Shown: in pieces, positions 30,320 to 37,224 of the stretch
Layout: each line of letters starts with the position of its first letter
How positions within the stretch are numbered: the first letter of the stretch is position 1
Origin: an uncultured Actinomycetota bacterium
GTDB taxonomy: Bacteria; Actinomycetota; Acidimicrobiia; Acidimicrobiales; Bog-793
DNA: 64,000 bases
Direction: 5' to 3'
Assembly (NCBI GenBank): GCA_963758515.1
Contig: CAVWVO010000001.1
Location: 201,511 to 265,510 of the forward strand
Program-made: the position numbers and the translations under genes
Notes under the pieces: model-generated
Databases searched by the model: none
What the model saw: the letters and a program-made list of their open reading frames with translations, nothing else
What the model was told of the DNA's origin: nothing

Positions 30320-31847
<1,528 letters not shown>

Positions 31848-32131: not shown

Positions 32132-33290
32132 ATCTGAATTTTTGTTCTCCAAGCTACAAAGAGCCAACGGTGGATGCCTTGGCGCCTGAAGCCGAAGAAG
32201 GACGTGGATGGCTGCGATAAGCCACGGGGAGCTGCCTATCAAGCTTCGATCCGTGGATGTCCGAATGGGGAAACCCGGCACCTGTCATGAGGTGTCACTC
32301 CGGTCTGAATGAATAGGACCGGCAGAGGGAACCGGGGGAATTGAAACATCTCAGTACCCCGAGGAGAGGAAAGCAACAGCGACTCCCTGAGTAGCGGCGA
32401 GCGAAACGGGAAGAGCCTAAACCGATGCGGTGTCAAGCCTGGTGGCGTTGCCGGATCGGGGTCGTGGGACGTGGAAGAAGGGGCACCAGACCCTTCACGG
32501 AGTTACAAAGTTGCTGCTTAGTGGAAGTGCACTGGAAAGACGCGCCATAGCGGGTAAGAGCCCCGTACACGAAAAGCAAGCAGCCTCCGTCCACCAATCC
32601 CGAGTAGCGCCGGATCCGGGAAAGCCGGCGTGAATCTACGAGGACCACCTCGAAAGGCTAAGTACTCACAGGCGACCGATAGCGAACTAGTACCGTGAGG
32701 GAAAGGTGAAAAGCACCCCGGGAGGGGAGTGAAATAGTACCTGAAACCGTTGGCTTACAAACAGTCAGAGCGTCGTCATCTCCTAAGGGAGGTGGCCGTG
32801 ATGGCGTGCCTTTTGAAGAATGAGCCAGCGAGTTACCGTGTGTGGCGAGGTTAACCCGAATGGGGGAGCCGGAGCGAAAGCGAGTCTGAACAGGGCGTTC
32901 AGTCGCATGCGGTAGACCCGAAGCCGAGTGATCTAGCCATGGGCAGGCTGAAGCGGGGGTAAGACCCCGTGGAGGGCCGAACCCACTTTGGTTGAAAACA
33001 AAGGGGATGACCTGTGGTTAGGGGTGAAAGGCCAAACAAACTCGGTGATAGCTGGTTCTCCCCGAAATGCATTTAGGTGCAGCGTCAGACGTTCAGCATC
33101 GGAGGTAGAGCACTGAATGGGCTAGGGGGCCTACAAGCTTACTGACCCCAATCAAACTCCGAATGCCGATGCTCCAGAGTCTGGCAGTGAGACCACGGGG
33201 GATGAGCTTCGTTGGTCGAAAGGGAAACAGCCCAGACCGCCAGCTAAGGCCCCAAATTCTAGGCTAAGTGGGAAACGATGTGGGAACGCA

Positions 33291-33360
<70 letters not shown>

Positions 33361-34225
33361 GTCCCGCGCGGACAATGTAACGGGGCTCAAGCCTAGAGCC
33401 GAAGCTGCGGGCTCCTGCCTAGAGCAGGAGCGGTAGGGGAGCGTCGATCTTGCTGAGAAGCGGCGGTGGGAACCGTCGTGGAGCGTGATCGAGTGAGAAT
33501 GCTGGCATGAGTAGCGAGAGAGGAGTGAGAAACTCCTCCGCCGTAAGCCCAAGGGTTCCTGGGGAAGGCTAATCCACCCAGGGTCAGTCGGGAGCTAAGG
33601 CGAGGCCGAGAGGCGTAGTCGATGCACAACTGGTTGATATTCCAGTACCACCGTGTCCGCGCCCATTCCAATCCGGGGGAACTACGGGGCTGGTCTTCGG
33701 ACCGATCTGTTGGAACCCGAGGCGGACAGCAAAGGGGGGACGCAGGAGGATAAGTGAACCCAGGCGCTGGTTGTCCTGGGGGAAGCGTGTAGGGGGAGTC
33801 CTAGGCAAATCCGGGGCTCACATACCCTGAGACGTGATCCCGAGCCATTCCAGGCGAAGTCACTGAGTCCATGCTGCCAAGAAAAGCCCCTAGCGAGTTG
33901 GCACGGTGCCCGTACCCCAAACCGACACAGGTGGGCGGGTAGAGCATACCAAGGCGATCGGGAGAACTGTGGTTAAGGAACTCGGCAAAATTCCTCCGTA
34001 ACTTCGGGAGAAGGAGGACCTCGATAGGGTGACGGACTTCGCGTCCCGAGCTCGAGGAGGTCGCAGAGAATTGGGGGAAGCGACTGTTTACTAAAAACAC
34101 AGCAGCGTGCGAAGTCGTAAGACGATGTATACGCTGTGACGCCTGCCCGGTGCCGGAAGGTTACGGGGAGGGGTTAGTCCTTCGGGACGAAGCTCTGAAC
34201 CTAAGCCCCGGTAAACGGCGGCCGT

Positions 34226-34977
34226 AAAGACAAGTTGCGGCTCCGGTTGGGTAACCGACCGGATCAAACCCTGCTATTTGCTGGAAACCCCGTGTATCCG
34301 GCGGTACTCGTCCATGGTGGCGCTCTCGAGCGCTGTCACATCCTCTTCGTAGGGTGAGAGCCATGGGCAGTGACAATCCGTCCGGTGCGGACAATCAGCA
34401 GGAAAGGCCCAGTTCCTCAGACTGGTTGGATCGTGTCCCGTATGACCTGGGCAACTGGGTCGCGGGCTTCGTCGACGGAGAGGGGAGCTTCAACGTCCCC
34501 GTCCGTCGAGAGCGTGATCGCGGCTTGCCATGGCGAGTCTCGTTGTCGTTCAATGTCTCGCAGATCGGTCCGGAACTCCCTGAGCTCCTGAGGTCGGTCT
34601 TCGGGGTGGGAACGGTTCGAGGTCGTGGGGACGGCGTCTTCTACTTTGAAGTCACTCGTCCCGGGGCGCTCGCAGAGCGGGTCTTCCCGTTCTTTGAGCG
34701 CTTCCCACTGCGCAGTCCGAAGCGGACAGATCTTGCGATCTTCCGCAGATCACTGAGCTCATCCAGTCAGGCCGGCACCGTACGCCGGCGGGCATCGGAG
34801 AGATCCTCATCCTGAGGTCTCCGATGAACCGAGGCGGAAAGCGCCGGTACGACGAGCGCTACATCCTCGCCGTACTTGAGAGTTGGGAATCCTCAGAGGC
34901 CATACGCAGGGCTCCGTCTTTGAAGCAAGACGGATGAAGATATGGTCCACGCCCTATGGCGACATAGGGGTAACGGG
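34226..34977 (+). mobile_element. Group I intron after U1911 (E. coli numbering) of 23S rRNA, ORF-containing, 752 nt
   Basis: Exon ...ggcggccgT | intron ...taacggG | aactataacggt. Guide gcggct (34237-34242) pairs with exon GGCCGU including the U.G wobble. Q-like aatcagcagg, R-like tcagaggcc, S-like aagatatggtcc. The junction could formally slide by 1-2 nt (AA is ambiguous), but only this placement gives U(-1)/G(omega). Confidence 0.8.
34354..34937 (+). CDS. LAGLIDADG homing endonuclease (single-motif, I-CeuI-like), frame break near 34746-34749
   Basis: Track ORF 34354..34815: ...LGNWVAGFVDGEGSFNVPV...SLSFNVSQ...GVGTVRGRGDG...RVFPFFERFPLRSPKRTDLAIF. The -1 frame then continues ITELIQSGRHRTPAGIGEILILRSPMNRGGKRRYDERYILAVLESWESSEAIRRAPSLKQDG, with its stop at 34935-34937. 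The likely start is ATG 34363. Confidence 0.75.
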
Positions 34978-34989
34978 AACTATAACGGT

Positions 34990-35295
34990 CAACCCAGGCC
35001 GTGGGTAAACCTGGCTATATGCTGGAATCCCCGTGTATCCGGCGGTACTCGTTATCCATCCATGGCCTCTGGCCATAGATTGATGGCAGTGACAATCCGT
35101 CCGGTGCGGACAATCAGCAGGAAACCGCGTTGTACAGCGGGATCCTCAGAGACTGCACGCCAGGCCTGTCAGCCTTCGCTGGCGGTGAAGGTACAGTCCG
35201 ACCCTCGTGGCGACACGAGGAATCAGGCAGAAATGGCCTGATCACTCTTCGAAAAGGCTCGGGTAACTGAGCTCCAGAAGAGGAGTAACAACGTG
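34990..35295 (+). mobile_element. Group I intron after U1923 of 23S rRNA, ORF-less, 306 nt, paralogous to the 34226 intron
   Basis: Exon ...tataacggT | caaccc...aacgtG | cctaaggtagcgaaa. Guide gccgtg (34998-35003) pairs with exon ACGGU. It shares gctggaaNccccgtgtatccggcggtactcgt and ggcagtgacaatccgtccggtgcggacaatcagcaggaaa with the upstream intron. R-like tcagagactgca. Confidence 0.75.
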
Positions 35296-35350
<55 letters not shown>

Positions 35351-35603
35351 CGACTTCCCCACTGTCTCAACCACAGACCCGGCGAAATTGAACTACGAGT
35401 AAAGATGCTCGTTAGCTGCACCAGGACGGAAAGACCCCGTGGACCTTTACTGCAGCTTGATGTTGAGTTTTGGTACTGATTGTGTAGGATAGGTGGGAGC
35501 CTAGGAAGCTTCGGCGTTAGCCGGGGTGGAGGCAACCTTGAAATACCACCCTGTTAGTGCTGGGGCTCTAACCTCGACCCGTAAGCCGGGTCAGGGACAG
35601 CGT

Positions 35604-35675
<72 letters not shown>

Positions 35676-35859
35676 GTTGGCAATCAGCCGTCGAGTGCAA
35701 TGGCAAAAGGGAGCTTGACTGCGAGACCTACAAGTCGAGCAGGTGCGAAAGCAGGCCATAGTGATCCAGCGATTGCGTGTGGAAGCGTCGTTGCTCAACG
35801 GATAAAAGGTACCCCGGGGATAACAGGCTCATCTTCCCCAAGAGTCCATATCGACGGGA

Positions 35860-35905
<46 letters not shown>

Positions 35906-35906
35906 C

Positions 35907-35942
<36 letters not shown>

Positions 35943-35965
35943 TACGCGAGCTGGGTTTAGAACGT

Positions 35966-36684
35966 AGATCACTGCGTCCCCAGGGAGTAATCCCTGGGTG
36001 CTCACCGGCTCATATCGGTGGAACCCCGACTGATACACCCGAACTGTACGGTCAGGGCAATACCGAGGGAAGGCCAACACCGGTGAAAGTGTTGCAAGCG
36101 TCCTATGTTGCAGGATTTCTCGATGGCGATGGAAGTATCCACTTCCAGCTCGTCAAGCAGAAGGAGTATCGATTCGGGTACTACATCCGGTCGAGCGTCT
36201 CCTTCTCGCAGAGCACCTCCGCCAGAGGAGGCCTGGAGATCCTCCAGAGCCTCGTTGGCGGTGGCTACCTGCGGGATCGTGGTACCGGAATGAGTGACCT
36301 CGTTGTCACCAGCCGGCCGCTTCTGCTCGACTTGTTGCGCTCTCTCGAGCCGTTCGTGATCTTCAAAAGGGAGCACGTGCGGCGAGCTCTCGATCTGCTT
36401 CCCCGCCTTGGCGGGGTGCGTGATCCGGAGCGGTACCTGCAACTGGCACGTGAAGTCGACGCCTTTGCCACCCTAAACTATTCGAAGACGAAGCGGATAA
36501 CCGCCGTAGATGTTGAGCGACATCTACGTAGCATGGGAGTGTTGTGCCCCTGTAACGACTTCCTCGCTTGCCACAGCGGGGGGATGGCGTCAGAAGTAAT
36601 CATCTCACGGACGCCATGACACGCCGGCCCCTCGAAAGAGGGTGAAGGTATAGTCTATGCCCGTAGTAATACGGGAGTTTCATG
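35966..36684 (+). mobile_element. Group I intron at L2593 of 23S rRNA, ORF-containing, 719 nt
   Basis: Exon gggtttagaacgT | agatcactgcgtcc...gagtttcatG | cgtgagacagttcgg. Guide gcgtcc (35974-35979) pairs with exon AACGU/GAACGU. S-like aaggtatagtct near the 3' end. Same site as the Chlamydomonas chloroplast Cr.LSU intron. Confidence 0.85.
36083..36619 (+). CDS. LAGLIDADG homing endonuclease (single-motif, I-CreI-like)
   Basis: Track ORF 35918..36619 starts in the exon. GTG 36083 is 9 nt after gagggaagg. VLQASYVAGFLDGDGSIHFQL...GGGYLRDRGTGMSDLVV...LEPFVIFKREHV...ATLNYSKTKRITA parallels I-CreI YLAGFVDGDGSI...GVGYVRDRGSVSDYILS...LQPFLKLKQKQA...AALNDSKTRKTTS (from memory). Confidence 0.85.
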   Translation: MKVLQASYVAGFLDGDGSIHFQLVKQKEYRFGYYIRSSVSFSQSTSARGGLEILQSLVGGGYLRDRGTGMSDLVVTSRPLLLDLLRSLEPFVIFKREHVRRALDLLPRLGGVRDPERYLQLAREVDAFATLNYSKTKRITAVDVERHLRSMGVLCPCNDFLACHSGGMASEVIISRTP

Positions 36685-36826
36685 CGTGAGACAGTTCGGT
36701 CCCTATCCGGTGCAGCCGTAGGAGATCTGAGGAAGGCTGTCCCTAGTACGAGAGGACCGGGACGGACGCAGCTCTTGTGTGCCAGTTGTCTTGCCAAAGG
36801 CACGGCTGGTTTGCGACCTGCGGAAG

Positions 36827-36858
<32 letters not shown>

Positions 36859-37104
36859 TCGTTCCAAGATGAGATCTCCCACAGGGTTAACCTGGTAAGG
36901 CCCGTGGTCAGAACACCACGTTGATAGGCCGGAGGTGTAAGCACGGCAACGTGTTCAGCCGACCGGTACTAATCGGCCGAGGGCTTGGGGCTCGTGCTCG
37001 CTATGGAAGGCTCACAGGGGCGACGGTTCGTCGTCGTCCTGACGGCTGCTGATATGTCGGCTCCAGAACTGGAGGCTGCCCCTCAGCGGCCGGAAGAGCG
37101 AAAG

Positions 37105-37224
<120 letters not shown>

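Follow-up and report, generated by a model that had tools for sequence, protein, structure and literature searches.

The window analyzed here is a stretch of 64,000 nt from the genome of an uncultured soil actinobacterium of the class Acidimicrobiia. It contains an rRNA operon (16S, 30321–31841; 23S from 32147; 5S, 37108–37224), the only one detected in the assembly, whose 23S rRNA gene is interrupted by three group I introns. The first of these carries a gene for a putative LAGLIDADG homing endonuclease that is distributed over two reading frames. The interrupted gene is built up as follows.

32147–36990, plus strand: 23S rRNA gene with three group I introns; 3′ end approximate (Rfam LSU match, 32147–36002)
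34226–34977, plus strand: group I intron 1, 752 nt, after U1911 in helix 69 (placed by exon junctions, the U...G rule and the P1–P9 model)
34237–34242, plus strand: internal guide sequence GCGGCU of intron 1, predicted to pair with exon GGCCGU (34220–34225) in a P1 helix with a U1911–G wobble
34978–34989, plus strand: exon between introns 1 and 2, AACUAUAACGGU, 12 nt, 23S positions 1912–1923, the same as in the uninterrupted sequence of a relative from the same genus (G001)
34990–35295, plus strand: group I intron 2, 306 nt, after U1923, an ORF-less paralogue of intron 1 (Rfam RF00028, 53 bits)
35966–36684, plus strand: group I intron 3, after U2593 (exon junction gaacgt / ...catg / cgtgagacag, tblastn match and ORF listing)

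Compared with an uninterrupted helix 69, the pieces follow each other in the order GGCCGU / intron 1 / AACUAUAACGGU / intron 2 / CCUAAGGUAGCG. A U before the intron combined with a G at the intron end is obtained solely with junctions at U1911 and U1923, the terminal G of intron 1 being 34977, as group I introns require. Guide sequences in the two introns (the above GCGGCU in intron 1; GCCGU, 34998–35002, in intron 2) match both exons, and P1 was 100% paired in 27 of 27 introns, including one sequence with a compensatory C-G to G-C change. The exon junctions thus agree with an earlier, sequence-only reading of this DNA that had assigned the LAGLIDADG gene to the U1911 intron and considered the U1923 intron ORF-less. 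In Rfam searches, intron 2 passed the RF00028 threshold of 50 bits and intron 1 gave no match to this family at E ≤ 1, presumably because ~470 nt of ORF occupy its P6a. The Rfam match to the 23S rRNA gene stops at 36002 because of intron 3; past this intron the exon resumes, as can be read directly from the sequence, and the real end of the gene lies near 36990. Intron 3 itself contains a second, intact-looking single-motif LAGLIDADG ORF (VAGFLDGDGS) at U2593, an I-CreI-type site. This frame is open from 35918 to 36619 and has its probable start at GTG 36083, so that the ORF likely spans 36083–36619.

A comparison of introns 1 and 2 yielded a secondary structure model from P1 to P9, which was then tested on a set of 27 homologous introns. 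Over the 74 pairs of this model, 94.6% of cells are paired, versus 38–44% for slid partners. Both sides changed in 25 of the pairs, and the observed score was reached by none of 500 shuffles. The conserved P3–P9 core, including the P3/P7 pseudoknot, is present, supported by covariation and alignable with intron 2. Judged by these sequence features, intron 1 is a group I intron and would be expected to splice. The endonuclease gene sits in the loop of P6a, the helix of CCCAGU with GUUGGG that closes the ORF-bearing loop, and extends at both ends into the ribozyme core, by ~49 nt at the ORF start and ~57 nt at the ORF end.

34363–34746, plus strand: endonuclease ORF, frame A, N-terminal 128 codons with VAGFVDGEGSF, FNVSQ and RSPK; 85–90% identical to 191-aa homologues
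34747–34748, plus strand: missing-base site, the 'ag' left of a CAG/GAG/AAG codon (protein and DNA alignments)
34749–34937, plus strand: endonuclease ORF, frame B, C-terminal 62 codons, with the TGA stop at 34935–34937
34363–34413, plus strand: 5′ overlap of ORF and ribozyme, comprising the 3′ strands of the P5 extension and P5, J5/4, and then strands of P4 (3′, 34395–34400), P6 (5′, 34401–34403) and P6a (5′, 34408–34413) in the P1–P9 model
34882–34937, plus strand: 3′ overlap of ORF and ribozyme, comprising P6a 3′ (34882–34887), P6 3′ (34890–34892), J6/7, P7 5′ (34898–34904), P3 3′ (34906–34911) and P8 (34913–34934), with the stop codon in J8/7
34941–34977, plus strand: P7 3′ strand (34941–34947), P9 hairpin (34952–34969) and terminal G (34977) in the P1–P9 model

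That the ORF begins within conserved intron core, in nucleotides shared with the ORF-less paralogue, had already been proposed from the sequence. Indeed, introns 1 (34367–34406) and 2 (35086–35125) share an identical stretch of 40 nt, GGCAGTGACAATCCGTCCGGTGCGGACAATCAGCAGGAAA, and the covariation data agree. Going beyond that observation, the 3′ end of the ORF likewise overlaps the ribozyme core: in P3, C-G is replaced by U-A in 13 and 8 sequences, P8 contains five covarying pairs, and the covariation of P3′ and P8 falls within the coding sequence. As a separate observation, the P4–P5 block is 100% identical between the two introns, which lie 12 nt apart, and P3, P7, P8 and P9 differ between them by compensatory changes. 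The identity of the 40-nt block reflects either very strong constraint or gene conversion between adjacent introns.

Frame A can start at ATG 34363 or at GTG 34354, and the 5′ overlap, judged from sequence and a structure model, is an open frame that may not be translated throughout. This is because residues 1–19 are predicted by AlphaFold with low confidence (pLDDT 46–53), as also are residues 182–191, and because distant U1917 homologues have stops in the same conserved nucleotides, their ORF beginning after them. The ATG is, moreover, located within the P5-extension helix. If translation instead started downstream, e.g. at the TTG/ATG of W-[L/M]-D, the N-terminal 'GSDNPSGADNQQERPSS' would remain untranslated and the 5′ overlap would be only apparent. 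We regard such a start as possible though doubtful, given that every complete U1911 copy is open from an ATG or GTG at that position and that GGGUGAGAG, read from the sequence just upstream of the ATG, is a candidate ribosome-binding site. The choice of start bears on how far the overlap reaches and has no bearing on the frame break.

Two further peculiarities were noted in this region. The P5 extension contains, at ~34322–34340, an insertion of 17–19 nt with the palindrome GCGCTCTCGAGCGC (alignment columns 106–124); none of the other introns among the 27 has a comparable insertion, three having 3–4 extra nt at that place. Inside the 5′ end of the ORF, GUUCCUCAGAC (34411–34421) resembles the functional AAUCCUCAGAG (34887–34897; P6′–J6/7), and this proximal copy drifts in several relatives. 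The likeness of the two segments may have been left by a duplication when the ORF was inserted.

As for the identity of the gene, frame A matched the Pfam family LAGLIDADG_1 (PF00961) with an E value of 3.3e-13 and, as had been claimed, holds one LAGLIDADG motif, VAGFVDGEGSF. The similarity reaches beyond this motif across full-length homologues. Frame B, too, aligns with the homologues over its full length and keeps GRH, PMNRGGKRR and WESSEAIR. Because homologues numbered 1,187 in the database (the best 80–90% identical, and typically 191 aa in a single frame) and were found at 277 genomic loci, both the gene and its break are beyond chance. Alignment of 54 sequences revealed G35, F36, D38, G39, E40 and G41 as invariant, and the window retains the Glu of the catalytic helix as well as the motifs FNVSQ, SPK and PMNRGG. 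An AlphaFold model was built for P0004, a natural homologue 90% identical to the window protein. The model (pLDDT 89) adopts the alpha-beta-beta-alpha-beta-beta-alpha core fold of single-motif enzymes and resembles the structures of I-TnaI, I-Vdi141I, I-CvuI, I-CreI-type enzymes and I-CeuI (Z 15–19). Sequence and model together identify the gene as one for a single-motif LAGLIDADG homing endonuclease (PF00961) of the homodimeric type, which would be predicted to cleave DNA.

Among Actinomycetota loci with a mappable junction, the gene resides at U1911 in 26 of 26 cases. Distant homologues occur in Planctomycetota, Gemmatimonadota, Omnitrophota and CPR bacteria at U1917, plus one at U1931; the endonucleases of U1917 introns are the nearest by sequence (42–52% identity). 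A quick IQ-TREE analysis, from which U1923-site and U1951-site proteins and broken copies were left out, recovered a U1911 clade (SH-aLRT 98), a U1917-containing clade (93) and a U1931 clade (93), with the branching order left unsettled. On the strength of this sequence comparison, the protein is placed as a member of a separate, U1911-specific clade.

The affinity to I-CeuI that the sequence-only reading had suggested did not hold up beyond the level of the fold. I-CeuI (2ex5), from the U1923 intron of the Chlamydomonas chloroplast, is likewise a single-motif homodimer of the same fold (151 residues aligned) with a target at a neighboring site in the same helix. However, it is only 21% identical and, with a Z score of 15.5, ranks sixth among the structural representatives, below I-TnaI, I-Vdi141I, I-CvuI, I-LtrI and an I-CreI variant; nor does it appear among the best 60 profile matches. 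As the U1911 intron harbors the window gene, and the intron at U1923, the very site of I-CeuI, is ORF-less, membership in the U1923-site family of I-CeuI was rejected. "I-CeuI-like" is therefore true for the fold only, since I-TnaI is closer (Z 18.7 vs. 15.5). I-TnaI (5gkk), a single-motif enzyme of a bacterial 23S group I intron (Thermotoga, U1931), is the best match in both structure and sequence among the solved single-motif structures compared with the window protein (rmsd 2.1 Å over 142 residues, 32% identity, profile E value 5e-23). In contrast to the window protein, its site is U1931 and it belongs to another clade, U1931 proteins being 35–38% identical to the window protein. When all solved structures are considered, the profile search ranked halves of two-motif I-OnuI-type enzymes first and I-TnaI next.

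Known introns offer further parallels. The L1917 introns of Synechococcus sp. C9 and Thermotoga subterranea are 743–774 nt long and encode proteins of 168–181 aa (Haugen et al. [quoted passage not shown] Intron 1 shares with them the helix 69 target region, the size and the overlap of the ORF through P7, P3 and P8. It differs in its insertion after U1911, 6 nt further upstream, in its guide sequence, in proteins that fall into a clade of their own (the above SH-aLRT of 98), and in an open frame that additionally covers P5, P4 and P6 on the 5′ side. In CPR bacteria, LAGLIDADG_1 genes were surveyed at sites 1917, 1931, 1952, 2593, 2604 and 2657, with 1911 not listed (PMC11270868), and for the enzyme I-ShaI, cleavage of the insertion site and dimerization were demonstrated (Tsurumaki et al. 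2024, PMC11270868). As in the window, one CPR 23S gene can contain several group I introns that bear single-domain LAGLIDADG_1 genes; the host of the window introns, unlike these, is a member of the Acidimicrobiia with a genome of free-living size, not a CPR bacterium.

Set against over 1,000 homologues with lengths of about 191 aa, the window lacks exactly one base at the break in the reading frame. Where homologues read DLAxFR-(Q/E/K)-ITELV, the window has cgc-ag-atc and is one base short in the protein alignment. In the DNA alignment of 27 introns, the corresponding gap at column 545 is found in the window alone, and the remaining 26 of 26 introns have the extra base. These alignments pin down to a single missing base what had been described from the sequence as a break near 34746–34749, with the frame resuming into a real C-terminus. 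A second lesion was not found in the gene: conserved residues are intact on both sides of the break, and the branch of the endonuclease in the IQ-TREE analysis is short (0.075). In the protein database, the truncated protein (P0003) comes solely from the window's own contig and hence is no independent record of the break. A search for a second gene copy in the rest of the genome, covering the assembly outside 16 kb around the locus, found none.

Frame changes are, however, not confined to this gene. Within the window, hisD (~10157) and argH (~28422) are each split over two frames that match consecutive Pfam profile coordinates. As controls, hisD is in a single frame in 7 of 7 other relatives, and hisC in 6 of 6 where it is complete. 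A GC3 frame-plot scan called only ~0.9 Mb of the genome as coding and returned noisy candidates; in its place, 110 proteins from 295 kb of a relative (G005; 94% complete) were compared with the whole assembly by tblastn. Of 51 orthologue-like pairs, 22 were broken, with 38 frame changes in 72 kb, which for conserved coding DNA corresponds to a rate of at least 0.53 frame-shifting indels per kb. The broken genes include gyrB, lepA, mfd, pckG (PEP carboxykinase) and those for methylmalonyl-CoA mutase and the transhydrogenase beta subunit (pntB). No clean nonsense codon was seen in 26,030 aligned codons. Eleven in-frame stops inside matches all fall at match ends or within short out-of-frame stretches, so the lesions are indels only. 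Indels that are not accompanied by clean nonsense codons are the signature of long-read consensus errors. As in the endonuclease gene, the breaks sit in ordinary contexts, in runs of 2–3 bases; there was no link to homopolymers, the maximum run length equaling that of random windows, and none to GATC (6 seen vs. 4.75 expected). Consensus errors probably also explain why a genome of 3.17 Mb in six contigs is scored as only 52% complete, members of the family mostly having 2–4.5 Mb.

Broken copies of the gene were likewise encountered at five other loci (L018, L024, L025, L031 and L036), all of them in metagenome-assembled genomes (MAGs) with MFD names; most of the close loci are in MAGs with MFD isolate names. 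According to their description, the MFD MAGs were assembled exclusively from Nanopore reads and polished once with Medaka (PMC12313526); the window's own genome may or may not belong to this set. The breaks at these five loci are probably assembly errors of the same class. As an observation on the DNA alignment, the one-base indels of L018, L024, L025 and L031 are each unique, L031 having three; the break in L036 is seen only in the tblastn comparison. In the other assemblies that were checked, the gene is in a single frame at the loci L012, L014, L016 and L021, and at L017 it has no frameshift and stops a few codons early.

Taken together, we consider it probable that the base missing at 34747–34748 is a long-read consensus error and that the gene is intact in the organism. 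An artefact is favored because frame-shifting indels are common across the assembly and occur in essential genes: a rate of 0.53 per kb leads to an expectation of about 0.3 breaks in 576 nt, and thus by itself to a chance of ~26% for at least one. At the level of sequence, the good conservation of both gene halves and the short branch also make an artefact the most likely origin of the break. The deletion might nonetheless be real, in which case the endonuclease gene would have just been inactivated, as a first step of decay once the only detected rRNA operon was occupied, with the intron still splicing. The single operon in the assembly would fit such a course, as would the ORF-less derivatives that exist both at U1911 in another genome of the family (G016) and at U1923 in the window. 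The broken copies at other loci could be genuine decay as well as errors, and the 23S exons are free of indel errors; for instance, in the 2,075 nt of upstream exon not one indel is specific to the window, against an expectation of 1.1 at 0.53 per kb, an outcome with a probability of ~0.33. We nevertheless judge genuine inactivation unlikely in view of the indel rate of the assembly and of a gene that, on a short branch, has no second lesion and intact conserved residues. Also, the broken copies all come from MFD-named MAGs, a set described as Nanopore-only, and L012, L014, L016 and L021 retain a single frame, as L017 is without a frameshift.

A third way to account for the two frames would be programmed –1 ribosomal frameshifting or another form of recoding that joins them. 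The frames overlap, and re-reading one base would restore the protein. Recoding was nonetheless rejected as extremely improbable, because there is no slippery heptamer at cuuccgcagauca and the extra base is present in all 26 of the other introns; intact homologues are read in one frame, and the gap is confined to the window. Among the three causes offered by the sequence-only reading, the assembly indel is thus preferred on the basis of the assembly-wide indels, early degeneration keeps a minor chance and recoding is discarded. The "broken" gene should accordingly not be read as evidence of decay and, as about one frame-shifting indel is present per 2 kb of coding DNA, any pseudogene call in this assembly needs the support of reads.

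The gene was present in 3 of 300 genomes sampled from the class and 3 of 80 sampled from the family. These carrier genomes consist of few contigs, and the frame is open except for one TGA in G163, with no frameshift reported. G001, which belongs to the same genus, has an uninterrupted helix 69 (L111, 1380–1520) and therefore supplies a natural intron-less target sequence. As its exons are 99% identical to those of the window, the intron arrived or was lost recently, a point that also speaks for an artefact at the frame break. G016, from the same family (L112, 1920–2700), has a 274-nt ORF-less intron at U1911, which shows the same P6a hairpin with a 6-nt loop and keeps the segments that match the 3′ ORF overlap. 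An ORF-less U1923 intron follows 12 nt downstream of it, and a U1931 intron is present in addition. Three states thus exist within one family, in which the site can be empty, hold an intron with the gene or hold an intron that lacks it. That the endonuclease gene is truly lost at times in this family is exemplified by G016 and by intron 2 of the window.

From these data, the element is best explained as a mobile group I intron that is inserted after U1911, in the helix 69 loop of 23S rRNA, and carries a single-motif LAGLIDADG gene in its P6a loop. The intron would self-splice from the pre-rRNA, with P1 formed by exon GGCCGU and the guide GCGGCU, including the U-G wobble, and with the terminal G at its end. 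The protein, acting as a homodimer, would cut intron-less helix-69 rDNA, and repair of the break would then copy the intron into the cut gene.

A literature search of partial coverage found nothing relevant on the L1911 site or on 23S group I introns in Acidimicrobiia, and the site may be recorded elsewhere. It is close to an even call, if slightly short of one, that U1911 is a previously undescribed rDNA intron site with its own endonuclease clade, in an intron-rich lineage outside the CPR. This clade may be common in soil metagenomes (>1,000 database proteins) and patchy among Acidimicrobiia, in which paralogous introns were found at 1923, 1931, 1951 and 2593. If so, U1911 would add an insertion site in helix 69, together with an endonuclease clade of its own, to the known 23S intron sites, and enzymes directed against the highly conserved helix-69 rDNA could become new meganuclease scaffolds. 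The last 19 codons of the gene covary as the RNA helices P3 and P8 and are a clear example of a single sequence that is constrained at once as protein and as RNA. Soil Actinomycetota, which lie outside the CPR, can have three or more group I introns per 23S gene. The Acidimicrobiia would be a non-CPR lineage with intron-rich 23S genes and would provide a natural system for studying how an intron, together with its endonuclease, shifts its target by 6 nt inside a single rRNA helix.
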